From Catajapyx aquilonaris (taxonomy: Eukaryota), in assembly GCA_000934665.2 (NCBI GenBank), contig JYFJ02002921.1, positions 1 through 49,662 of the forward strand: a stretch of DNA of 49,662 nucleotides, in the 5' to 3' direction. The notes below the pieces were generated by a model. That model was not told the origin of the DNA and did no database searches. It saw nothing but the letters and a program-made list of their open reading frames with translations. A program made the position numbers and the translations under genes. Of this stretch, positions 22,301 through 45,452 are shown in pieces (position 1 is the stretch's first letter; each line of letters starts with the position of its first letter).

Positions 22301-25300
22301 GCCCTTACACAATGCGACACCTGGATGCAAGCTATAATTTTCGCACAATTGGCTCTCAAATTGTGAAAATCTACTGGGACCATGACTAGTGACACCCACA
22401 CGACACGTGACGATCGGAAACATTCGGAGAAAAAGTGTTCAGGTGGTGCCATTGTGTGTCCAAGCGGGTAATTAGCGCTCGGAGTTAATTAGTCGAAGAA
22501 AATGGAGGGTGTGCGTTTCAACGGGCGTGCTCGAGAGGTCGACGAACCCGGATCGAAGAAAATTTCGAAACACTTTATAGAAACAAAGATTAGCACGCGA
22601 AAATCAGAATTTATTCTGGTGCCCTAGTGACAACGCACCCTAGTGCCATTGGCATTGGTGACCCGTGCGAAAATAATAGCCAAAAAAAGGGGGGGGGGAT
22701 ATATATATAAAAGCAACGCGTGACTCAAACGGAGATGTCCAAATCCGGATTCAGCAAAGTCGTGCCTTTTTTATGCGGATGTTCGATAGGCACGCGAACA
22801 ACACATTCTAGGAGTTGAAATTTTGATGTCTTTTCAAAGGTGGGGAGATGCGGCGTGGTTGGGTATATATATGGGAGGGGTCAAAATCAAGCCTTAGAAT
22901 CGCCGGGGGCCATGTTATTGCATCACATCGATGTGTATTTGCAGAAAGTGAGCGTGAATCATGCTACTGGGCCGTTATTCGCAAAACACGCTCGTTGCGA
23001 ATTCAAGGAGGTCATGCCCATAGGTTGCGAACTTTGGCCCCTCGCATTTATAGCTGATTTTAAAAAAATATTGTGCGCAACTTGTTTCCAACACTACGCT
23101 TGAAGGGGTAACAATATGGCCGACTTTTGCGACGCTGCCAAGGCTACCTTGATCACTGTGGCAACGTTGTCGTCGGAACAATGGATTTGCACAAGTATGG
23201 TTGCGCACTCGGTAGTGTTGTGGACGTAGTATCGTATGTGTCACATAGATGGCGCACTACTGATGACTCACCGCGGACACATAGCGATCAACATTATAGT
23301 ACCACTCTCGGTGATTGCTAGGGTGCAAAAGTTGGCCAATTTAGTGTCAAAATTTCTCTGGCATCGAGCCCTAAGTACACGGGAAATTTTGGCACGAGTG
23401 CAACGTGCTGATTTTCCAGCGGTAGCGGCTTCCCAGGGTATTTTGCCAAAAATTTGCACGCGACCGACCCAGTCCGTGCTTGGTACGCAAAGAAGCTTAT
23501 CCGGCGAAAAAGTTCCGCATCGGCACCCTTTTTTTTATATACATTTCTTCGCAAGGACACCATTCTGCTTAAAAGGGCCTAGTAAGGGGGTGGTGCAAAT
23601 GGCGTCGACCATTCGGCGAACCCCCAAAACGCATCCAAGGATCGATCGCACCTTTGGAAGGTGGAGGGGGTATAGGGAGGCAATCTCATCAACAATAAAT
23701 GATCTTACCTCTGGTCGTGGACCTTGGATCTACTCTGGAAGGTTTGGCAGTAGTCTAGCAGAGAACTGTGCATTAGGACGAGTAAGGTGAGGGAGACGAA
23801 GATGGCGCCTAGAGGAACCACCAGGGAGTAGGACAGCACTGCGATCTGCAATAATTATTACATAGACTCATTTAACAGTAATTACACTGGTTAAAATACT
23901 ACTTATAAGGAAAAAAGCCGTATCTGCAGCAGTTACGGTTTTTTTCTTGCTAGGAACAATATCGCCGTTATTGCGTATTTATAAAGCTCATAAATGCATA
24001 TTGACTCTGCACATGTCTGCCAATCGTGTAATCATTATTATGCTTCTTATCGGGAATTTGGTAAACAGGACCTATAGGGGCGCGCAGCAATGGCATAAAG
24101 CAAAGCGGCTGTAAGCGGTAATGAGACTTAAGCGTTCGTGACGGCGGTGATAACCAGTCCGATAATAATATCTTAGTAGCTATATAGGGGGGGGGGCAGC
24201 TCGTAAATCTTTCATTCGAACCAGGAGCTATTGAGTGACACAACTGCCAATACAGCCCGGGGATCAATCTCTTTAAGCATCAACCACGTGATCCTCATTG
24301 CCTGGTTAATTAAGTTGATTGACATTTCGTTCCTCACCCGCACGTACTTAATCAGCTGGGGATAGTCGAAGCGTGCGTGATAATTGATTTCAATCGCACT
24401 CTTATAGTCACGAGCATTGTTGAATCAGGCTTTTAAAGAATGACTAGAAAAACCATCGTCTCGATCGCTTTTTTTCCCTTCTATATAGGGCGCAGGAGTA
24501 GAAAGCCACTCGCTTTTTTTCTAGGCCTGCGGCCTGTGGTGGTGGAGGACATGTTTAGAATTTTTGGCAATATGTTTGATTACTGACCTGCTGTTGACGG
24601 TCGTAGTGCGGGAGGACTAGGGTTTGGTTGACCTTTGAGTAGTAGCATGGGAAGACGATGCCCTCGGTTGCGAACTGATCCCTGAAGTGTTTGCAGTCCA
24701 CTTCGGGCGGGAAGCCACAGCCTTTCACGTTGACCAGCAGCGCACCTTCCGTTCCGTTGTCGAAAGGGTCGGGGTCAGAGGCCGGGAGGAGACCCGGGCT
24801 GACCCCGGAGCCTCCAGAGGGGAAGAGCTGCCACAAACAGATGATGATGATTATTATTAGGGTCATACCCTGCGCACTGTTGGCATGGCATGGAACAATC
24901 CATCAAGCGGTGTATAATGCACAGGTATGGTTTTGCCCTAATTAACGAAGTTGCAGCAAGTTGGCGGGGGGCTAATTAATGGCTCCGGACCCAACCAGGA
25001 ATTTAAAGCGGCCAACATGCACCATAGGGAACGTTTAGAGAGCTGCTATGTGAGGCCTACTTGAAAGGTAAGGCGACAAGAGTTCTGCATTGCAGAGTTA
25101 CACATTTTTATTAAGACAACAAATGATCGTAAAGGCGGTTGTCCTAATAACTACAGGGCCTTTATAGTTTTCCTCTGAACTAAATGGGGCAGTGATTGTG
25201 GGTCAGGTGACCACAATTGAGGTTAGTCGACGCCCGCACGTGGAAAGGTTTAAAAATACCGGCGACAACAACTCGGAATTAGTCGGGGGTTTCTCGCGGA

Positions 25301-27769
25301 CTATAGGGGACGATAGCAATCTGAGAAACCACACGCGACACGTGCGGGGGTCCAATAGTACGAGGAGGGGCTATAATACCCAGGTTATATAGTATGCCTA
25401 GAAGCTCACGTGTACTATGCGGAGTAAAGACCAATAAGGATGATGGTATACCTCTTGGAAGGGGCTACTGGTGTAGCGGACGTGTATGTGTGTGCAGTTG
25501 TAGGCGTCGGCGGTGCAGCCTTCCCGGCACGACGTCCAGGTGCAGTTGTTGAGACCGCAGGCCGTCTCGACCCTGGTGGTGAGACAGGCCACGGGACGGT
25601 CGACGAACTCGGCCAGGAGAGTGGACAGCGCTGGATCCACGAAGAACGGCACCACGAACAGGAACGCGGTGCCGGCTCCGATCAGGACTAGCGCCAGGAG
25701 GGCCGTCATGTAGAACCTTAGCCTCTGACGACACGACGGCTGTCACCAGGAGATAAAAATTCATTTAAAAAATATTCTATTATTTCGCCCACACTCGTGG
25801 CACCCCTTCCCCATGTCACTTCCAGTCACACTTACACCTACATTTTGTTGCCATGCGCATCCTTACTGCGCAAGAACCACCCCGCATGCTCACTATATAT
25901 GAGTTATTTATGTGCACAACAGAGTGCGCGTCACAGCGGGCAAGGTTGGCATTATCTATATCTATATTTTATAGAAAGTTTGTTTGTTTGTGGGTTTGTT
26001 GTTTCCTCTTCCAAGCGTGAGTCGACTACGCTAACCAAGGCGGGATGTCGACCTCACATGAATTCGTATCGCATAGTCAGCCCAAGAAAAGTCTGCATTC
26101 CAGAGATTTTGAAGTAGAGTGGCCAGACGCTGACAAAGGCTCTGGGAACATGCTGCTCGAGTGTGGGTGCGCACTCGGTTGCGTTTGTACAAAAATTCAT
26201 CTATAGACATTTCTTCCACGTGTCTGCCATATCAGTCGCTGTCGGATGTGGTAAGGGGTAAAAATCTCAACATTGAGATGTCAAGTGCGGAGCTGACGTA
26301 AAGCTTCACGCAACGGGAACAGACCATGACACGCACCCCATAATTCCAACTCTGATTTACTATCCAGATGAATTTCTGCCCAATGGATGTTCCGACTCCA
26401 TGAGAAAATGTTTGGCAATAATGTGCTCGAATAGTGGACCAGGTCTAGACCGGGTCAAGTTTACTTCGTCCCAAATGTTCCTTCTTTGTGGATGAGAATC
26501 CCTGTCACTTTACGACCTAGTTAATTTCCACAGGTTGGAAAATAAGTGGGGATGACATGTTTTCCTCTCTGTATGTCACTGATTGGCGGTAGCGGTGCTT
26601 GTGACGCCTCCTGATTGGCCGTCGACATCATTTCGGACAGACACGGCCACAAACACACCGAAACGGAAATCGATGCCCCGGTTGACGATGCCTATATACT
26701 GTGCTCTGTGTGCATAAGGCCCCCTCCACTCGGGCATGATATTTATGCGATAAGAGTAGCCAATATTAGGAGTGCACTGTACAGTACAATAGATGAGGTT
26801 GACCATTTTTAAATATTCAATATTGGAATGTGGGTTGCGCAACAAAAGAAACAAGTCATGCTACTAGCACCCCGCAATTAATAGGCTATGAAGAAACACT
26901 TACGCGGACTGCTATAATATTGAAGGCCCTTTTACTTTACAGCTGTCATTGGGTGTCACGTGGTTCGACTTACCCAGAAAACCGCAAGCATTACTACTGA
27001 GTCTCCCATGCTCTTGTAATGCTTTACAAAAGCATTACAAGATCATTAAAATATGTGCTGCTCCATCGGAGACTCAGTAGTGATGTTCTTTTAATACTTC
27101 ACGGTTTACAGTGGCTGCTCCTCATTGGTTGCGACCAGGAAGAATGCCAAATGTTGTTCCCAAGTAAGAGGGCCTTCAACTATACACGGCAACTCAACCC
27201 AATAATGAAATTGACGGTAAATATATCTCATCCAATGAAACAACGCCAACAACAGGCGATTCATATCCAGCATGTTTCTCTGATTGTTTACTTTAGATCA
27301 CGACCCTGTTACTTGAAAGGTCACGTGATTTCGTACAAATGTACACTGGTGTACTATAGAGGTACTGCATATGAATGTATGTATTAGGTATTGACGTGAC
27401 AATGTCAACAATACTAGCAATGAACGAGGGTGTTATTCCAAGAACTGCTGGTGTTTCACGTAAGAGGGTCGTCAACTACATTGCATAAGATGCCAACAGA
27501 GCTTCATTTTTTTTTTTTACCTTTGGTGGTGGTGCTTTGGGTTGTCCCTTGAGCTGGAGGAGACGTTTCTTCTGTGCGGCCAGAGCGTCTGCACTGTTGG
27601 AGTGACTGGTGCTGGCGCTGTCCATGACCTTGCTGCTGGCACCGCTGACCGGCGTGAACCCTGACACGCCCTGTTGGTTGGCCAAGGAAGAAGAAGTGGT
27701 AGGGTGACCATTGTGGTGCGAAGGGGTAGCAGTCTTCCTGATCAGGAGGGCGTTGGAACACTTCAGCAT
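16282..27769 (-). CDS. Teh1: TipE-family (Teh1-like) voltage-gated Na+ channel auxiliary subunit; coding exons 27769-27521, 25739-25452, 24827-24588, 23845-23709, 16345-16282 (about 325 aa)
   Basis: The spliced product has TM1 (RFYMTALLALVLIGAGTAFLFVVPFFVDPALSTL), the TipE-family loop motifs NCTWTSCREGCT and ALLVNVKGCGFPP..C..F......G..FPCYYSK.N.TLVL, TM2 (IAVLSYSLVVPLGAIFVSLTLLVLMH) and a basic tail. Junction phases 0,0,0,2 all fit GT-AG. VDPA-STL and the short loop resemble Teh1 more than TipE as I recall them. The start codon is uncertain (27769 or the downstream ATG at 27625) and the last exon is inferred from phase only. Confidence 0.85.
16622..16680. repeat. Near-perfect inverted repeat (hairpin)
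   Basis: cccaagggggtaaccactcgactgacaag-t-cttgtcattcgagtggttacccacttggg. Confidence 0.8.
17334..17480. repeat. Diverged tandem duplication of a unit of about 60 bp containing an internal palindrome
   Basis: tgatcgct...actgttattt..aaataacagtcatca.ttt.atgtga..tgcatttac at 17334-17394 and 17420-17480. Confidence 0.75.
20611..20720. repeat. Degenerate inverted repeat (MITE remnant)
   Basis: tgaattttcgtccca / tgggacgaaaattca with weaker outer pairing. Confidence 0.55.
22029..22224. mobile_element. Tc1/mariner-type MITE
   Basis: TA|CAGGGTGTC...GACACCCTG|TA termini plus internal inverted repeats (cagttgtgccaact / agttggcacaactg). Confidence 0.8.
23709..23845 (-). CDS. Teh1-like exon: TM2
   Basis: attattgcag|ATC GCA GTG...GAC CAG AG|gtaaga; IAVLSYSLVVPLGAIFVSLTLLVLMHSSLLDYCQTFQSRSKVHDQ. 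Not in the ORF track. Confidence 0.88.
24588..24827 (-). CDS. Teh1-like exon: extracellular loop (VNVKGCGFPP, FPCYYSK)
   Basis: tttgtggcag|CTC TTC...CAG CAG|gtcagt; 80 codons. Confidence 0.92.
25452..25739 (-). CDS. Teh1-like exon: TM1 and SCREGC motif
   Basis: gtgacag|CCG TCG TGT...CAA GAG|gtatac; 96 codons. Confidence 0.92.
27521..27769 (-). CDS. Teh1-like first coding exon (start uncertain)
   Basis: MLKCS...MDSASTSHSNSADALAAQKKRLLQLKGQPKAPPPK|gtaaaa; phase 0 join to the next exon. Confidence 0.65.
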
Positions 27770-32444: not shown

Positions 32445-32510
<66 letters not shown>

Positions 32511-32527
32511 TGATGATGATGATGATG
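32445..32527. repeat. Compound microsatellite (TAA)21(TGA)6
   Basis: Read directly; forms the tail of the SINE. Confidence 0.95.
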
Positions 32528-33189: not shown

Positions 33190-33560
33190 CCAACTTCCGC
33201 TGACCGGCCACTTCCGGTTTTCCGCTAAGGTCAAAATTTACATCCAAGTTAATTAATTACACTACAATACTGGTTGTTTAACCGGTGGCTAAAACCAGCT
33301 ATTTGACGAGGTTAAATTACTTGAAACATTAACTTTAATTCTGTAAAATTTGGCGTCTGGCAACCCCTGCACCTTTCAAGATGGCCGCCGTTTACGTGTG
33401 CATTTCTTCATTTCCAGACATATAAATTGAGCTGCAGGCCGTCGCTTCAGAAAAAGAACAGCAGCTCTGGTTTTGAAATCAGGTCCGTCTGAAGGAATAG
33501 TCTGATCACAACGAGTGCGTACAATTCCGCCAAACCAACCAAAAGATGGCCACCAATTTA
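33190..33560 (+). promoter_or_regulatory. Housekeeping-type promoter region of SEC63 copy A
   Basis: ETS-like ACTTCCG/CACTTCCGG motifs near 33192 and 33209, YY1-like CAAGATGGCCGCC (33377-33389) and AAGATGGC (about 33543), upstream of a likely 5'UTR acceptor ttttccag at 33603 and the ATG at 33623. Confidence 0.5.
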
Positions 33561-33622
33561 AAAACCAGATGTCAAATAATTTAATGTCCTTTTTGTTTTC
33601 CAGATTTGATTTTTTTTGGAAG

Positions 33623-36600
33623 ATGGGAGGACAGAAGTTCCAGTATGACGAGAGTGGAAACACTTTCTTTTACTTTGTGCTCTCCTTCCTGCTCCTCATA
33701 TTGGCTCCAAGCACGTACTATCTGTGGCCGCGAAGAGAAAAAGAAGGTAACGCACTGCGTACATGAAAAAAGGTTTAAACTAGTGGTAATGTTGCACTTT
33801 TTTTGGGGCAGATCCGGAGAGGAAAAAGGACGAGTGTAGGTGTCAAGGATGCGTACAGAAGGACGGAATACTTCTACGGGTCGAGCCGAAGAAGAGGATA
33901 AAGCGGATTACTACGTACGGATATGGCTCTGTAATTACATAGCGATTGGTGCTTACATATGCGATTTCAGGTATGGCCTGCTCATATTCGGCTGGCTGGT
34001 TTTCTTCGCAATTGCGTACAAAGTGGCGCAGTTTGACTACGAGTACGCAAACTTCGACCCATACGAAATACTCAATGTGGATCCGGTAAGTCCGTTTCAA
34101 TCGCTGCTAATTCCGATTATAATCCGCATGTACTACGCAGAGTTCATCGCAAGCCGAGATTAAGAAGGCGTACAGGAAGCTGTCGCTCATTTACCATCCG
34201 GATAAGGAGACTGGCGATGAAAAGACTTTCATGAAGCTGACCAAAGGTTAGTCCCATTTTAAATCTGAGTTGATCGGCCTTACTAACCAATGGCGATTGC
34301 AGCTTATCAGGCGTTAACTGATGAGGAAGCGAGGAAGAACTGGGAGAGGTACGGAAACCCAGACGGACCCGGAGCCATGAGCTTCGGAATTGCACTTCCA
34401 TCCTGGATTGTGGAGAAGGAGAACTCAGTCTGGGTCAGTTACAGATAGCCCGTGAAGTAGAGGAAGATAATTTAATATCTTATCTTTTTTATTAACCGCT
34501 TTTGGCCGGAGCGTTGACCCAGTCGCTATTGGTGTGCGAAAAATATCAAGACAATTTCGCTCATATTAGTGAAAAGTAATTCAGCAGAAACTAGTCTGTC
34601 ACAGAATATTTGTCATGTCGTAGAGAAAAACTTTCCAAAAATTTCTGCTGTCAGTAATTCTGTTCAGTACAAATATAATTTCATAGGAGTGACTGCCAGT
34701 TGCCAATTTTGCATTAGCAAGTCCGAGGAAATAATTGGGCTCAATTTTTTTTTTTCTTGAACAAGTATGGTGTCTTACAAATGCAAGCGCAATGTTTTGT
34801 TTTCACCTGTCACTGGGCAAAATAATGCCCCGTCCGATATGAGTTAACAGATTGCTGGGGAGTCGTATCTCTGTTAGAGACATGAAAGTATGACCTGCTC
34901 GTACCGATAATGCAGCGAAGCAAGCATTGGCATGTTGCCCATGAACATGCAAGGTAATCGATGTTATGTTGTCTGTTACGTACCATAGACAGTTCACGTA
35001 TTTCTTCGGCTTGTAACATGTCAGGTACATAACATTTTTTTCCATGGTATCAATAATTCGATAAGTAATTTTTATTCGACTTCAGGTACTAGGCCTGTAC
35101 GCCCTTGTGTTCATGGTGGGCCTGCCGACGGTGGTAGGAATGTGGTGGTACAAGTCAATCCGCTACTCAGGGGAGCAGGTTCTCCTTGGGACAACCCAGA
35201 TGTACTATTACTACTTCCACAAGACGACGCTGATCAACATGAAACGGGTGATCATGATCCTGGCTGCTTCCTTAGAGTTTGATCGCAGGCACAACAAGGA
35301 GGTCGGAGAGAGGGCCAGTGACAACGAGGAGGTTCCCGCACTCATCAAGCAGCTTCCAAACCTGAGTGAGAAGAACAAGGAGTATCCACTCTGCTGCGGA
35401 TATTCGGTCAAGGCGAGGGCCCTTCTTCATGCGCATCTGTTCAGGATCCAGCTCTCGGACACGCTGGAGCAGGACAGGCAGTTTGTGGTCAGGAAGGGGC
35501 CGTACCTGCTGCAGGAAATTGTCAACTGCGTCTCACAGCTTGTGTTGCTGGCACATGCTGGGAGAGGTATGATCACTGCGGTTGAAATTATGCTGCATTT
35601 CTAATGTACTTGCCTTTGCAGTGAATCGTCTTCCCGACCTGCGCACGATTGAGAATTGCATGCGGCTGAGTCCAATGATTGTGCAGGGTCTTTGGGACAA
35701 GAGCCCATTGCTGCAGCTTCCATATGTGACTGAGGACATGCTGAAGTATTTTGTGACGAAAAAGAGGCAGATCAGGAGCATCCAGCAGTTTGTGCAGCTG
35801 AAGGACGAGGAGAGGAGAAGCCTGCTCAAGAGTCTAGACCCGCAACAGTATGACAACGCTATGAAAATGTGTGCCAAGCTTCCGTACATCAAATTTGAAG
35901 CCACGCCTGAAGGTAAGTGCTGGTGGTCGTGTGATGTGGGCAGTACCTTATTTTGCGTCACGTTTCAGTGGTGGATGATGAAGCACCGGAGGAGTTCACT
36001 GCCGGAGCTATTGTGACGGTGACAGTGACACTTTCCCGTGACAGCCTGGCTGGAATGGTTGGGGAGAGCCATGCTGATCATCACATGGAGTACGATGGGG
36101 GTAACGAGGAAGACAGTGATGAGGATGTGGGTGGTGGCGACGGAAGGAAGAAAGAAGAGAAGGAGTCGGTGAAGAAGCCTGTTTGGCAAAGCAAGGCGAA
36201 GAAGGGAGGCAAAAAGAAGAAAGGCGGCGGAAACAAGAAGGTGGTGAAGCAGCAGAAGGTGGTTGCGCCAGTCGAGGAGGAGGCGCCGAAAGAGGAAAAG
36301 GAAGGGCCGAGGAGGCGGAAGAAGGTGGTTGAAGAGGAAGAGAGCGGCAGGAGTGAGAGCGAGGCGGATAAAGAAGAAAGCGGGGATGAAGACGTGGCCG
36401 GAAAGGAGATTCACAGCATGCTGAAGGCCGAAGAGGAGAGTGAAGGAGAGGACGAGGAGGACTGGGACAAGTTCCAGAACAAGATGTCCAAGAAGGAGAA
36501 GGCTCTGGAAGGAAAGAGCAAAGTCTCGCACCCTGTTCACTGCCCCTTTTTCCCCGAGGTAAGCTTCCAAATTACTTGTCTGCCTTTTACGACTACATAT

Positions 36601-37034
36601 TGTTATGTTTTTATCTCAGGACAAGCAAGAGTATTGGTGGGTGTATGTGTCGGACCGCAAAAATCAGATGCTGATAACGGCTCCGTATATCGTGACTGAC
36701 CTTGTGAGCCAGGAGGAAGTGCAGCTCAAGTTTACGGCTCCTCCTAAGCCAGGAGTGTACACATTCAGTGTGTGTCTCAGGTCGGATTCGTACTTGGGAT
36801 TCGATCAAGTGAAGGATCTGAAAGTGAGTATCAATTTGAGAAAGTTGTGCCTTCTATCAGAATCGTACTAGTGGTGAGCGCTTGTTGCAGCTTGATGTAA
36901 AGGAGGCCAAAAAGGTGGAGCATCACCCGCAGTGGGAATTCTCAGAGGACGAGGAAGACAAGGATGACGATGCTGGAGACGAATCTGAATTTGCGACAGA
37001 CGATGACGACGACTCGGATCAAGCCAACGATTGA
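33623..37034 (+). CDS. SEC63: Translocation protein SEC63 (copy A), 762 aa; exons 33623-33746, 33812-33914, 33971-34085, 34141-34246, 34303-34433, 35086-35566, 35622-35912, 35969-36558, 36620-36823, 36891-37034
   Basis: MGGQKFQYDESGNTFFYF N-terminus, three TM segments, luminal J-domain with HPD (34195-34203) and YGNPDGP, Sec63/Brl domain (SHPVHCPFFPEDKQEYWW, LRSDSYLGFD) and acidic C-terminus. All 9 introns are GT-AG and the 2289-nt CDS is in frame. Confidence 0.96.
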
Positions 37035-37609
37035 GAGTAGTCACTGTGTGTAGATCTGTGCGTGGCGAGAGAAGTGAGTCAGCATTGTGGGGAAATGTTT
37101 CCGTGGTACGGAAGATGGCCAGCCTGTCAAATAGGTTGGCGACCAGTATTTTATTAACCTTTATTTTCTGACCATTTAAGGTCACAGTGACTGTGCCAGT
37201 AGTTTTCTAACATGGTGGGGATTGAGAAGATTTATTCAAAGAAAAAGAGTTTTGTATGGCAGTTATGTAGGTGTGTAGTGGAAAAGAAAATAATTTTCTT
37301 CGCTTTGAGCATTCCCCCCTGCTGCGACTGAACTTCTGCAACAATCATTCGGTACTTTTAGTAGGACACGTTAGATCTGCGGTGTGAAGCGTCAAAAGCT
37401 TCAAACCTTCTGGTATTATTGAAGTGGAAGGATGTGGAAAAAATTTTGGTGTCGAATCTCAGTTTTTCCATCCTCCCAAAAAACCCTATTGCATTTTTCT
37501 GAGCTCCAATTATTTTTGTCTCTCTCTTTTTTTTTGTTGTCCATGGAATATTAGTGGTAATGGCATAATTTTTGGGGGTGGATTTTGCGGGTCCTTTTGA
37601 CAGAAATGG

Positions 37610-37615
37610 AATAAA
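37610..37615 (+). terminator. Candidate poly(A) signal of SEC63 copy A
   Basis: AATAAA about 580 nt after the stop codon, followed by TG/T-rich sequence. Confidence 0.45.
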
Positions 37616-38689
37616 TTATTTGTTACATATTGTCAAGCACCAAGTTGTAATTTTGCGCATATATTCAGCGTCATGCATTTATTCTAAGGAAACTTCGTGC
37701 AGAATGTAGGTTTTGGTCTGGCCGGGACAGGTTTATCGGTAAGTATATGAACTTTGAAATTTGGTGTGTGAGAAGTCACTGAATGGAATTAGCTCGGAAA
37801 GCAAGACTTTGTCTCATGCGTGACTTTTATCGATTTGCATGATGGTTCACTTATCAGGCTTCGATCGTCTTTTCAAGACCTGCCCATCTGCCAGTTGAAA
37901 ATGGTTAACACGACCGAGGGTATCACAATAAATGAAGCACAGTGAAACCTACATTTAAAAGAATCGCTCCGATATATGTTTGACAGAATAACATCAAAAA
38001 TTATTGTACCATATTGTTTATGGGTCGGGAGCCAGCTTTATTTTCGTGTAATATCCAGCCATTTTTAAAATAGAAAACATGGGAGGTGATCGCTAACAAA
38101 TTAATGTGATCTAGCCAGTTTTTTCAGTGCAGTTTATATACCGGTGATAATAATCAACGAGTGAAAAAAAAAAGAAAATTGGAGGCAGCCTTTTATCTTA
38201 GGTCAATAGGTGGTCCGCTTATCATCTCTGCGCCACATATCATGCTGATGCTCACTACTCACACTGCTTCAGTGACACAGACTAAGTAAGTTAACAATAT
38301 TTTTCAGAAGTAACAGTCATTATTAAAATGTTAATATGCAATCTCATATGTTTGCCTTGTTCTGCTTGCTTGAAACAAGATATCGGGTGATATACACGGC
38401 ATTCTGGATGCTGCAGGTGTTTACAATTTGTATTTCGAACGTCTAGGGCAATTACACCGTAACTGACGCAACATCTGGAGAGGATTCATGCTGTACTTAT
38501 ATTTGTTGCAATGGCAAATGTTACTGGAAAAGGAATTTAAAATATAATGATCTGCTTTCAATAAGCCATCTCCACCCCACAATAAGCGACTTCATTTTTG
38601 GATCATGTCTCTGTTGCCGTGGAATTACCCTCTAACATCAGTATTTATTTGTTTGAAGATACCATTAATATTGAAATCGGGATTGAAGC

Positions 38690-41600
38690 ATGGCAGGAAG
38701 TAAATTCGAGTATGACGAGAGTGGAAAAACCTCCCTGTACTTTGCATTGTCATTTCTGTTCGTCATTCTGATCATCGGCACATATTATGCCTGGCGCCGC
38801 GTGAGCAAACAATGTAAGTTACTTATGTTTTATGCTTTGGGATGTGCATGCTAATAATATTTAATTATGGATATTCAGCAGGAAAGAAACTTCGCTGTAG
38901 ATGCAAAGGCTGCGCTCAGAAAAATGAGAGATTGCGGCCAGCAGAAGATAGCAAAAGAAGAAAGCATATCCTTATGTACGTGTGGTACGCCAGGAATAAT
39001 TTGATTCACGCATTATACCTTTGCATAATTTTTATTTCAGATGTACTTTGCTTGCACTTGTATGGTTTGCCTTTTTCGCCCTTGTTTATTACGTGAACCA
39101 GTTTGAATACGAATATGTAAACTTCGACCCATATGAAATTCTACAGCTGGATGAGGTTTGTATACACGGCCGTATGATCAGCTAACGTTGGACATGTAAT
39201 TAACGCTAGCTTTCCATTTGGACAGGGATCGTCACTTGCTGCAATTAAAAAGTCCTACCGGAGGCTTTCCCTTATCTACCATCCTGACAGGGAGACTGGC
39301 GATGAAAAGAAATTTGTGAAGCTGACGAAAGGTATGAATATTTTGTTACAATTGTCTGATACTGATGCAGTCATTTCACAGCTTATCAGGCATTGACTGA
39401 CGAGGAAGCGAGACACAACTGGGAGTTGTATGGGAATCCTGACGGACCTGGCGCGAAGACCTTTGGAATTGCTCTCCCTTCTTGGATTGTTGAAAAGCAG
39501 AATTCAATATGGGTGCGTTTCGTACGACTAACTCTCCGCCTGAGTTGGAATGTAATGGTTGTTTTTTTCAGGTGCTAGGCTTGTACACATTGGTGTTTAT
39601 GATAGGTCTCCCTACTGCTGTTGGAGTGTGGTGGTACAATTCGATGCGTTATTCTGGGGATCAAGTGCTGCTGATCACCACCCAGTTGTTCAACTTCTGC
39701 TTCGACAAGACTCCCTTCATTAGCGTCAAGAGAGCCGTAATGATACTGGCTGCCTCATTTGAGTTTTGTCCCGCATACAACAATGAAGTTGTGTCCAGAG
39801 AGACTGACGGCCCAGAGTTGGCAGCGCTGATCAAAAGGCTCACCAGCAACCTTGGCGAGAAGGGCAAGGAAAGGCCTTTCTGCGCCCAGTATTCCGTCAA
39901 GGCGAGGGCCTTGTTGCATGCTCACTTCTCACGGATAGAGTTGGACAAGGAAAGCATGCTGGAAGCGGACAGGCTGATGATACTTAACAAATGTTCGCTC
40001 CTGATACAAGAAATGATCAGCTCAGTGTCAAACACCATGTTCAGGGCCCGATGGAGGAGAGGTGAGGTTCAATTAATGGCTCCATGGGCAATCCTGCAAT
40101 AATTTTATGTTTTACCAGCGGTATGCCCAGTGATAGTGAAAGGTAAATGGTGGGACAACCTGAATTACCTCGACCTACCGTACGCTTTGCAAATAATGCT
40201 GGCTGACCTGGCAACCAAACGGAAGAAGATCCGCAGCGTCAAGGAGTTGTTGCGTGTGAAGGAAGTGCAGCGGAGGGACCTGCTCAGGAAGTTGACTAAG
40301 CAGGAGTACGATTTCATAATGGAAGTTTGCTCGAGCAAGAGGTGCCACAATGTGTCTCTAGATTCGACTCCAGAGGGTAAGACTTTGTGTCTCTTCAATT
40401 GCAATGAATCTCTCGTAGTACTAGAGGAGGCCTTTTCAGTTATGATATTGGACTACTACACTCATATTTTCATGATGCAGGTAATTGCCTTCCGGAGTTG
40501 CGCACAATGGAGAACTGCATGCTTCTGAGCCAGATGATAGTGCAAGCCGTGTGGGACAACACTCCTATGTTGCAGCTGCCTTATGTAACTGAGAAAATGT
40601 TGGCCGACTTTGTTGTCAATCGGAGGACAATAGGCAGCATCCATCAATTTATGCAGCTGAAGGAGACGGAAAGGCGGGATCTGCTCGAGGATTTGGATGA
40701 TCAGGAATACAGTGACGTCATGGAAACTTGTGGAGCGTTTCCTCATGTAGAGATGGAGGCTACCCCAGAAGGTGTTGTTGGATTCTGCCTGTCAAAAATA
40801 ATTGGAAAACATTGCCATTAATGAATTGTTTGTAACATTGCAGTTGTGGATGATGAAGCTCCCAATGATTTCACCGCTGGAGCTATGGTGACAATGACTG
40901 TGAAACTGACACGGAGCAGCCTGAAGGGCTTCGGCACGAAGGATCAGGACGAAGTAGCGGATGATGGGGATAAACCCGAGGAAGAAGGGAAAGAGGTGGA
41001 GGTGACCACGAAGAAGCAGACAAAGTGGCAGAGCAAGGCAAAGAAAAAGATCACGAAAAAAGGTGGGAACAGGAAAGCCGGGAAGAAGGGCATGAAAGCA
41101 ACTGAAAATGTTCCGGAGGAAAGTGAAGAAGAGGAAGAGAAAAAAGAGGTTGAGGCAGCGGACGGCCGAGAAAGCGGGTCAGAAGGAGAAGAAAAAGAGC
41201 GGGACGTTACTTCCGACGAGAAGCATGACGACTGGGAGGATTTTCGCCATGTTACTCCCAAGAAGGAAAAGGCTTTGGAAGGAAAGAGCAAACTGTCGCA
41301 TCCGGTCCACTGTCCTTTCTTCCCAAATGTTAGCTTCAATAATTGCTTGCATGATTGTATGAATTTTTAAATCTCCTGTCTCTAATCTTTTGTGCTCGTA
41401 GGACAAACAGGAGTACTGGTGGGTGTATATTTGCGACCGCAAAAATCAGATGCTGTTAACATCACCGGTACTGGTTACTGATTTGGTAACTACCAAAGAG
41501 ATTGAGATTCATTTCAACGTTCCGTCAGAACCAGGACAATACACATACAGTGTATGCCTCAAATCAGATTCATATTTGGGATTCGATCAAGTAAATGACT

Positions 41601-41856
41601 TGCAGGTACTGTTACCTTACGTATGATAATGACAGTTGTTCTGTCTCCGTAATGATTACTAGAAGTAATAGCAGATTGGTTTTGCAAATGACAATTTGGT
41701 AATGGACGTTTATACTTTGGACAGTTTGATGTCAAAGAAGCCAAAGAGGAGGAAGACCATCCGCAATGGGACTTCTCGGATGAAGAAGAGGAGCAGGAAG
41801 AGGATAAAGAGGAGGACATTGGATACGACTCTGAGTTTGCAACTGATTCTGAATAA
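38690..41856 (+). CDS. SEC63: SEC63 tandem paralogue (copy B); exons 38690-38813, 38879-38975, 39041-39155, 39226-39331, 39382-39512, 39572-40061, [40119-40376], 40481-40771, 40844-41328, 41402-41605, 41725-41856; 724 aa without and 810 aa with the extra exon
   Basis: MAGSKFEYDESGKTSLYF start, HPD retained (IYHPDRETGDE), YGNPDGP, SHPVHCPFFPNDKQEYWW, LKSDSYLGFD, acidic tail. Intron positions and phases match copy A, six exon lengths are identical (124, 115, 106, 131, 291, 204), and I found no internal stops or frameshifts. Confidence 0.92.
40119..40376 (+). CDS. Extra duplicated exon (7a) of SEC63 copy B
   Basis: ttttaccag|CG GTA TGC...CCA GAG G|gtaaga; 258 nt, phase 1-1, open; aligns with exon 7 (PVIVKGKWWD..LPY...ML...TKRKKIRS......K...RRDLL..L..QEYD..MEVC...TPE). 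Confidence 0.7.
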
Positions 41857-42774
41857 ATTCTCCCCATGTCTTCTTATTTCTTCTTTTGATTCATCAATTG
41901 TCCTTTGCAAGGTTGGTGTAAGAAGGAGGAGTAACAGTAGTGGTTTCAATTTTGGTAGCATGTCAAGTTCAGATTGATTTCCATATCGCTGCTGTGCTTA
42001 ACGACGTCAAGTTGCATGGCTCTGTAGGCTAAACTATGGAGCTAAAAAGGGGGCAAAGTAGAATCTAGCTGGTTAATCGCAATTAAGTGTTCTCTGATCA
42101 CATGCACTCTCGTATAACAATTTTGTGTAAGTTTAATTACATTTTTTGTAACATAATGGCTGTGTCCCAGAGACTTTTTTAAACTCAAGTTTGAGTATTT
42201 CACAGCCATGTGTTTCATATTATGTTAAAAAGTTACCCATGGGCCTAAAATTCATACATTTTTTTTTTTCTCCTCACATTCTGGAATTACGTGCTACATG
42301 GGCATGTTATCACGAGGCTAATTGAGAGGTGCTTATGAAGTAGATGTCACAAAGAAATTGCAACACTTGTTTGTCAGGGTGACATTCTGAGATATTCATG
42401 ATGTAATGCAGGAAGGATTATTTTCTACCCCCATTAGTGGAGTTTGGTCATAGTATTTTTTGTACAGGTACTTACAGCCATGAACTACAACTGGGATCGA
42501 CCATCATGTGCTCCACAAGATCTCGGAGAGTAACAGAAGGTATTTAGCTATTTTTTTTTTAGCTAACTATATAGCTGTGTATTAGCCTTAGTTGTGCAAT
42601 TGTGACCTACCATGCACAAATTCTGTCTGTGACACAATTGTTGACATTGTAAGGACTTTTCCCATTCCAGCAATATTTGCAAAGTGTTACACTCCTGGGG
42701 TACAGGTGAAGGATGTGAATTCCCCACTTAACCCAACCAACTTAGATAAAGCAAGAGCAATCCTGCTAGATTGA

Positions 42775-44542: not shown

Positions 44543-45452
<910 letters not shown>

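Follow-up and report, generated by a model that had tools for sequence, protein, structure and literature searches.

SEC63 is a core subunit of the protein-import machinery of the endoplasmic reticulum, usually encoded by a single-copy gene and stable in its architecture. The canonical gene, as found in insects, amphioxus and molluscs, comprises J-domain exons, Brl-domain exons and an acidic tail, with which the protein binds Sec62 in yeast and mammals. Assembly of the Sec complex suffers when the Brl/FN3 region is deleted; the passages of the review considered here for both points (PMC8657602) contain nothing specific on the small helical module of Sec63. We analyzed a stretch of 49,662 nucleotides (nt) from Catajapyx aquilonaris (GenBank assembly GCA_000934665.2, contig JYFJ02002921.1, positions 1 to 49,662 of the forward strand), referred to as the window. 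It contains two tandem SEC63 genes on the plus strand, copy A followed by copy B, which share the J-domain exons, Brl-domain exons and acidic tail of the canonical gene. Unlike the SEC63 relatives examined, copy B (SEC63-B) has two tandem exon-7 modules, here called 7a and 7b, and adjoins a second, more conservative SEC63 gene.

Tandemly duplicated exons are found in about 10% of animal genes and are linked mainly to mutually exclusive splicing (survey cited in the part of PMC9013439 used here). SEC63-B is like these genes in that homologous exons lie side by side within one gene, agree in phase and have splice sites of their own. As far as the excerpts consulted describe them, the mutually exclusive pairs 7a/7b of ATE1 and 5a/5b of the SCN α-subunits are also similar, since they too consist of tandem homologous exons differing in surface residues and charge. 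In SEC63-B, however, the two exons are joined in one mRNA and their double inclusion is in frame, and a competing RNA structure, a steric limit or an incompatible splice-site type was not seen. This differs from mutually exclusive use, the best-known outcome of tandem exon duplication, and would result in an internal domain repeat. A further difference from tandem exon duplication as usually known is that the 7a copy is truncated at its 5' end. A literature search (subscription journals lay outside it) yielded no work linking SEC63 with exon duplication and, judged by title and abstract, none on mutually exclusive SEC63 exons. In our view SEC63-B probably gained a basic helix-loop-helix module through duplication of an exon in tandem, the new copy being expressed and spliced together with 7b.

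Exon 7a (40119..40376, plus strand) comprises 258 nt with 85 whole codons, and exon 7b (40481..40771, plus strand) 291 nt with 96 whole codons. The latter is the canonical exon 7 of copy B, the former a diverged tandem copy of it that is truncated at the 5' end. Three short introns on the plus strand, all of the GT..AG type, separate the exons from each other and from their neighbors: 57 nt between exon 6 and 7a (40062..40118), 104 nt between 7a and 7b (40377..40480) and 72 nt between 7b and exon 8 (40772..40843). Exon 7a is flanked by AG at 40117-40118 and GT at 40377-40378, exon 7b by AG at 40479-40480 and GT at 40772-40773; a GT directly follows the end of exon 6 (40061), and an AG directly precedes the start of exon 8 (40844). 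Both 7a and 7b are open in a single frame, the one beginning at the third base. As exon 6 leaves one base, both exons are of phase 1-1. Their lengths are multiples of 3, so that 7a and 7b in any combination keep the frame. Models built from the coordinates gave 810 amino acids (aa) for the form with both exons, which is open throughout, 724 aa with 7b only and 713 aa with 7a only. The net charge (K+R minus D+E) is +6 for 7a, -11 for 7b and +4 for A7, the single homologue of these exons in copy A. An earlier note, made from the letters of the DNA alone, had given the same isoform lengths and charges and had described both exons as open, AG/GT-bounded and of phase 1-1; our calculations and the frame check agree with it in all these points.

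A tblastn search of the window with 7b found exactly three copies of the module: 7b itself, A7 (59% over 96 aa, E-value 1e-37) and 7a (42.7% over 75 aa, E-value 6e-18). In a MAFFT alignment 7a is 41% identical to 7b and 38% identical to A7. The homology between 7a and 7b is far beyond chance, and we are dealing with a tandemly duplicated exon whose copies have their own splice sites, a common phase and a common frame. The two exon-7 homologues claimed in the earlier note were thus recovered at the same positions. At the DNA level the homology extends from 40127-40378 to 40530-40773 (157 of 257 columns, 61%), and the two length differences between the exons (+1 and +2) are both whole codons, i.e. 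in frame. In the DNA alignment nothing recognizable at 7a corresponds to the first 49 nt of 7b. Judged by this alignment, 7a is a partial, 5'-truncated copy and not a full-length homologue of exon 7, and the earlier description of 7a as a version of the same module holds for its homology but not for its full length. The flanking introns show no significant similarity to each other; the observed scores were reached by 1051 of 2000 shuffled sequences on the 5' side and by 623 of 2000 on the 3' side. A hint in the MAFFT alignment that the 57-nt intron might hold a 5' remnant of the duplicated exon was rejected, because 1051 of 2000 shuffles scored as high.

Transcript evidence comes from run X1, the sole public run containing the window stretch, whose kind is not on record. 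Its contigs, aligned to positions 33400-42100, skip at least 15 GT..AG introns across both SEC63 genes and were for that reason taken as RNA-derived; 9 of the 12 aligned contigs are at least 99% like the window. Two GT..AG joints flank exon 7a: 40061>40119 (aligned as 40059>40117, cut +2) and 40376>40481 (aligned as 40375>40480, cut +1), each with a depth of 4.85 and with 137 and 52 letters, respectively, on the shorter side. The joint between 7b and exon 8, 40771>40844 (aligned as 40769>40842, cut +2), has a depth of 26.6. In spliced mRNA 7a is thus followed immediately by 7b, in support of the 810-aa tandem form. Since a 7a-7b joint can only stem from an mRNA with both exons, the tandem form exists and the two exons are not strictly exclusive. 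The tandem-module isoform suggested in the earlier note is borne out by these joints from exon 6 to 7a and from 7a to 7b and by the open frame of 810 codons. The 104-nt intron is, in agreement with that note, too long to force mutual exclusion by itself. The note had also named the junctions to look for. Those that include 7a (40061>40119 and 40376>40481) are present, whereas the skipping joints 40061>40481 and 40376>40844 do not occur among the 15 joints listed. Since contigs drop rare variants, this is no evidence against skipping. Only the form including 7a is represented among the listed joints, and positions 39511-39801 of copy B are without contig cover. Four additional joints may be those of the four 5' introns of copy B, at a depth of 2.2. 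The increase in depth from 4.85 in the 7a contig to 26.6 downstream should not be read as an isoform ratio, because copy A shows a similar rise from about 5 to 16.6 in the 5'-to-3' direction without having a duplicated exon.

These data also bear on whether 7a might be a pseudo-exon that is never translated, a dead intronic remnant whose contig is an error, or an assembly artefact. Exon 7a is indeed covered by a single contig with a depth of 4.85, and this contig has 22 leading letters unmatched in the window. Both joints next to 7a, however, coincide to the base with the GT..AG sites that the DNA predicts, and the frame is kept across them. A contaminant from genomic DNA or unspliced RNA would still contain its introns, and in X1 at least 13 other introns of both genes are likewise removed at exact GT..AG joints. 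We regard this explanation as highly improbable.

Two further features of the X1 contigs were noticed. The contig carrying 7a starts at 39923 within exon 6, and its 22 additional letters have no match in the window with up to 3 mismatches; they could be a chimeric contig end or reflect an unseen upstream joint. Just upstream of the SEC63-B start codon, five contig ends lie loose at 38444-38628, together with a single inserted base after position 38571; they could stem from repeats, other transcripts or alternative 5' leaders.

To which part of the Brl domain the duplicated exon belongs can be seen from comparison with the Sec63 units of Brr2. A PDB sequence search with 7b gave E-values from 7e-7 to 3e-5 for these units (PDB entries 2q0z, 3im1, 3hib and 4f91), residues 12-92 of 7b aligning to residues 145-223 of 2q0z with an E-value of 7e-7. 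In the subdomain terms of the literature on Brr2 structures, this region spans the final part of the helical bundle and the small helical domain behind it. AlphaFold2 models were calculated for 7a and, as a control, for 7b from the same 23-row alignment of SEC63 exon-7 regions. The 7b model (mean predicted local distance difference test score, pLDDT, 78.9) contains a long helix (residues 6-23) followed by helices 28-31, 37-43, 53-57, 61-67 and 73-85. Four helices are predicted for 7a (24-31, 40-45, 48-54 and 60-71), and in the models they correspond to the last four of 7b (37-43, 53-57, 61-67 and 73-85) with a constant offset of 13. The long helix of 7b has no counterpart in the 7a model. According to these models, the bundle's last helix and a helix-loop-helix module are both encoded by 7b, and only the four helices of the module by 7a. 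Lacking the long bundle helix, a protein with 7a only is structurally doubtful.

A Foldseek search with the 7a model retrieved Brr2 Sec63 units as the best matches (root-mean-square deviation 1.3 Å over 53 columns, probability 0.97), and the model superposes on the same part of these units to which 7b aligns. In the tandem form, 7a would probably be an additional module placed in the loop that leads to the last bundle helix; its ends are modeled with low confidence and are probably flexible. Brr2 itself also contains repeats, but there whole helicase-plus-Sec63 cassettes are repeated, whereas in SEC63-B the repeat comprises the small helical module only and lies inside a single Brl domain.

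The splice sites of 7a look normal beside those of the other 19 introns of both genes, with a T-rich acceptor ending in CAG and the donor GTAAGA. Introns are short in both genes (50-119 nt, plus one of 652 nt), and short introns favor independent removal by intron definition. Given their lengths of 57, 104 and 72 nt and their ordinary GT-AG sites, the three introns around 7a and 7b would each be removed alone, which would make inclusion of both exons the default, in line with the joints observed. Devices that enforce an exclusive choice were not seen: the intron between the exons, at 104 nt, is long enough, all sites are of the GT-AG type, inclusion of both exons keeps the frame, and inverted repeats are no commoner than expected by chance, with three inverted 11-mers in the region 39950-40900 compared to a mean of 3.29 in 100 shuffled sequences.

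This context is relevant for the alternative that splicing of the two exons is regulated, with 7a, 7b or both being optional and tissues choosing between the acidic form with 7b only, the form with both exons and perhaps the basic form with 7a only, so as to alter the charge on this face of the Brl domain. Every combination is in frame, the charges of the two exons are opposite, and the 724-aa product with 7b only has the architecture and length usual for SEC63 (relatives 744-770 aa). Tandemly duplicated exons are, moreover, often used alternatively, according to the part of PMC9013439 considered here, and skipping forms are compatible with the X1 joints because minor variants are dropped by contigs. 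On the other hand, the 7a>7b joint rules out a strictly exclusive choice, a 7a-only protein would have no counterpart of the bundle helix formed by residues 6-23 of 7b, no enforcing device known from other systems was seen, and the shortness of the introns speaks for their independent removal. We consider regulated use of the exons rather unlikely. The charge switch controlled by splicing that the earlier note had proposed is likewise unsupported, in view of the 7a-7b joint, the missing bundle helix of 7a and the lack of a visible enforcing device.

The coding region of copy A (33623..37034, plus strand) consists of 11 exons encoding 762 aa; its introns were taken from GT..AG contig joints and the joined frame was translated. 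Its single exon 7 (A7, 35622..35912, plus strand, 291 nt) is delimited by the joints 35566>35622 and 35912>35969 after cut shifts and by alignments. A microsatellite, (TAA)n followed by (GAT)n, is located upstream of copy A at 32445-32526. Copy B (38690..41856, plus strand) has 12 coding exons including 7a and encodes 810 aa up to the stop codon at 41854-41856, which was checked. In its gene model the 5' introns were deduced from homology to copy A and the 3' introns from contig joints. Both genes are complete, matched in their introns and present in spliced contigs of run X1. The proteins of copy A and of copy B in the 7b-only form are 55.7% identical. Eight of nine outgroup SEC63 proteins are nearer to copy A than to copy B, which identifies copy B as the faster-evolving paralogue and copy A, with its one exon 7, as the conservative one.

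Full-length SEC63 relatives carry the Pfam families PF00226 and PF02889. Exons of the J-domain with its HPD motif are found in the translated frames of both genes. Exon 6 of copy B (39572..40061, plus strand) encodes the helical-bundle part of the Brl domain (Pfam Sec63, E-value 4.8e-5); it is 46-57% identical to annotated SEC63 proteins, and the top SEC63 matches are from insects. Exon 8 (40844..41328, plus strand), defined by the joints and the gene model, contains the start of the β-sandwich part and a charged linker. The last exon of copy B translates into a run rich in E and D, the acidic C-terminal tail. When single exons were scored against PF02889 (cut-off 25 bits), exon 6 reached 23.2 bits and 7b 20.6 bits, both below it; 7a gave no score. 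The homology of copy B to annotated SEC63 proteins is clear.

A tree of 23 exon-7 regions grouped the three modules of the window as (A7,(7a,7b)) with a support of 92/88, and an older origin of 7a was not rejected by the approximately unbiased test (p = 0.35). The 7a branch has a length of 1.04 compared to 0.28 for 7b, i.e. it is about 3.7 times longer. Identity between 7a and 7b is 0.70 at second but 0.49 at third codon positions. The ratio of nonsynonymous to synonymous substitution rates (dN/dS), calculated by the NG86 method, is 0.31 for 7a/7b, at a dS of about 1.6 and with an infinite dS against A7, so that synonymous sites are saturated. In neutral simulations starting from 7b, 12%, 5% and 3% of the copies remained free of stop codons at 0.3, 0.55 and 0.8 substitutions per site. 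Among the family-conserved positions lost from 7a are invariant Q and P columns, whereas the hydrophobic and RR..LL core positions are retained. These observations suggest that the frame of 7a, and probably its fold, has been maintained under relaxed constraint.

Homologues of 7a were also sought outside the window. A search for longer homologous proteins with 7a gave none; the same search with 7b gave none either, which reflects a limit of the word index and not an absence. An exhaustive search of representative proteins with 7a yielded 11 matches at 31-40% identity, ten of them ordinary SEC63 proteins and one a repeat artefact (P0012). A second significant exon-7 module was found in none of 21 other SEC63 relatives or fragments. 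Three metagenome loci from a scan with 7a were discarded, since they encode bacterial enzyme-like proteins with a chance motif of about 25 residues and are not relatives. Two of the matches, between 7a positions 40160-40235 and L001:3001-3078 and L002:3001-3066, show 62-73% identity over about 25 residues and were judged to be due to chance.

Taken together, we propose the following course of events. In SEC63-B, the faster-evolving member of the tandem pair, the greater part of exon 7 would have been duplicated in tandem. The copy, exon 7a, would be a working coding exon that is spliced in along with 7b to give an 810-aa SEC63 with two consecutive helix-loop-helix modules in its cytosolic Brl domain. 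The added module, basic and truncated at its 5' end, would occupy the loop that precedes the final helix of the bundle. Independent removal of each short intron would make 6-7a-7b-8 the default, with no choice between the exons, and tandem inclusion would presumably be the main or constitutive form. To judge from the models, 7a may still fold as a helix-loop-helix module. It would then contribute a further surface of positive charge, evolving under relaxed constraint, and would not replace 7b.

A number of findings weigh against this proposal. The transcript evidence for 7a consists of one low-depth contig from a single run of unrecorded kind, contigs give no isoform ratios, and four joints are not among the 15 listed. 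A Pfam scan of 7a recognized no family. The 7a model is moderately confident (mean pLDDT 65.4, compared to 78.9 for the 7b control), and its Foldseek matches have weak E-values, none better than 0.36. Because an alignment of SEC63 exon-7 regions guided the model, part of its resemblance to the Sec63 fold comes from that input. Of 32 family-conserved columns, defined as conserved in at least 70% of the outgroup SEC63 sequences, 7a keeps 16, compared to 24 for 7b and 26 for A7, and 7a shows weak enrichment at conserved compared to variable columns (Fisher p = 0.067). A three-branch maximum-likelihood codon model gave an omega of 0.25 for 7a, with p = 0.088 against omega = 1; in this fit branch-length bounds were hit and synonymous sites were saturated. 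Finally, no orthologue of 7a was found in the searched protein libraries, which contain no close relative, the best exon-6 identity being 57%.

Several of these findings would also be expected if 7a were a tolerated passenger that is spliced in but has no function of its own and drifts in a surface loop. Only its frame would then be kept, because a stop codon would destroy SEC63-B. The long branch of 7a, 3.7 times that of 7b, the loss of 16 of the 32 conserved positions, among them the invariant Q and P columns, the negative Pfam result and the lower pLDDT fit such drift. So does the codon model, in which neutrality is not rejected, and a stop-free state persists in 3-12% of copies even without selection. 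The lower divergence of second compared to third codon positions and the omega estimate of 0.25 argue against it, as do the retained hydrophobic and RR..LL core, the presence of all four helices and the fact that both indels are in frame. We judge the passenger explanation to be unlikely. The same figures qualify the selection that the earlier note had derived from the open frame: this conclusion is reasonable, but weakly backed by the simulations and by the test against omega = 1.

As a more far-reaching possibility, 7a could be a lineage-specific, neofunctionalised add-on that is adjustable by splicing and places a basic module (+6) beside its acidic parent (-11) on the cytosolic face of the translocon. 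We regard this as quite doubtful. If true, SEC63-B may have gained a new partner, such as RNA, an acidic protein or, in competition with Sec62, the acidic tail of SEC63-B itself. Tissue-dependent skipping of 7a could then make SEC63-B a specialized, splice-adjustable subunit of the translocon.

Outside the SEC63 pair, several other features were observed in the window. Two open frames on the plus strand (201-1069) match the SUEL-type galactose/rhamnose-binding lectin domain with E-values of 2e-9 and 1e-3; they probably belong, as exons, to a lectin-domain gene that extends beyond the start of the window. Another two on the minus strand (24558-25742) match the Pfam family TipE, an auxiliary subunit of sodium channels, with E-values of 1e-25 and 2e-11, and indicate a TipE-like gene. 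Like the insect origin of the top SEC63 matches, they point to an arthropod. An uninterrupted run of 504 A residues at 44944-45447 could be the tail of a retroelement or an assembly artefact.

The duplication in SEC63-B is real yet fairly ordinary, with no new mechanism and no proven splicing switch. It illustrates a less-cited outcome of tandem exon duplication, in which both copies are kept in one mRNA. For annotation this means that the 810-aa model with 7a should be retained and that 7a should not be dropped as an intronic relic. For the SEC63 family, a paralogue with a repeated sub-module indicates that an insertion ahead of the last bundle helix is tolerated by the Brl domain, and SEC63-B is a natural construct for probing the role of the poorly defined small helical module of Sec63.

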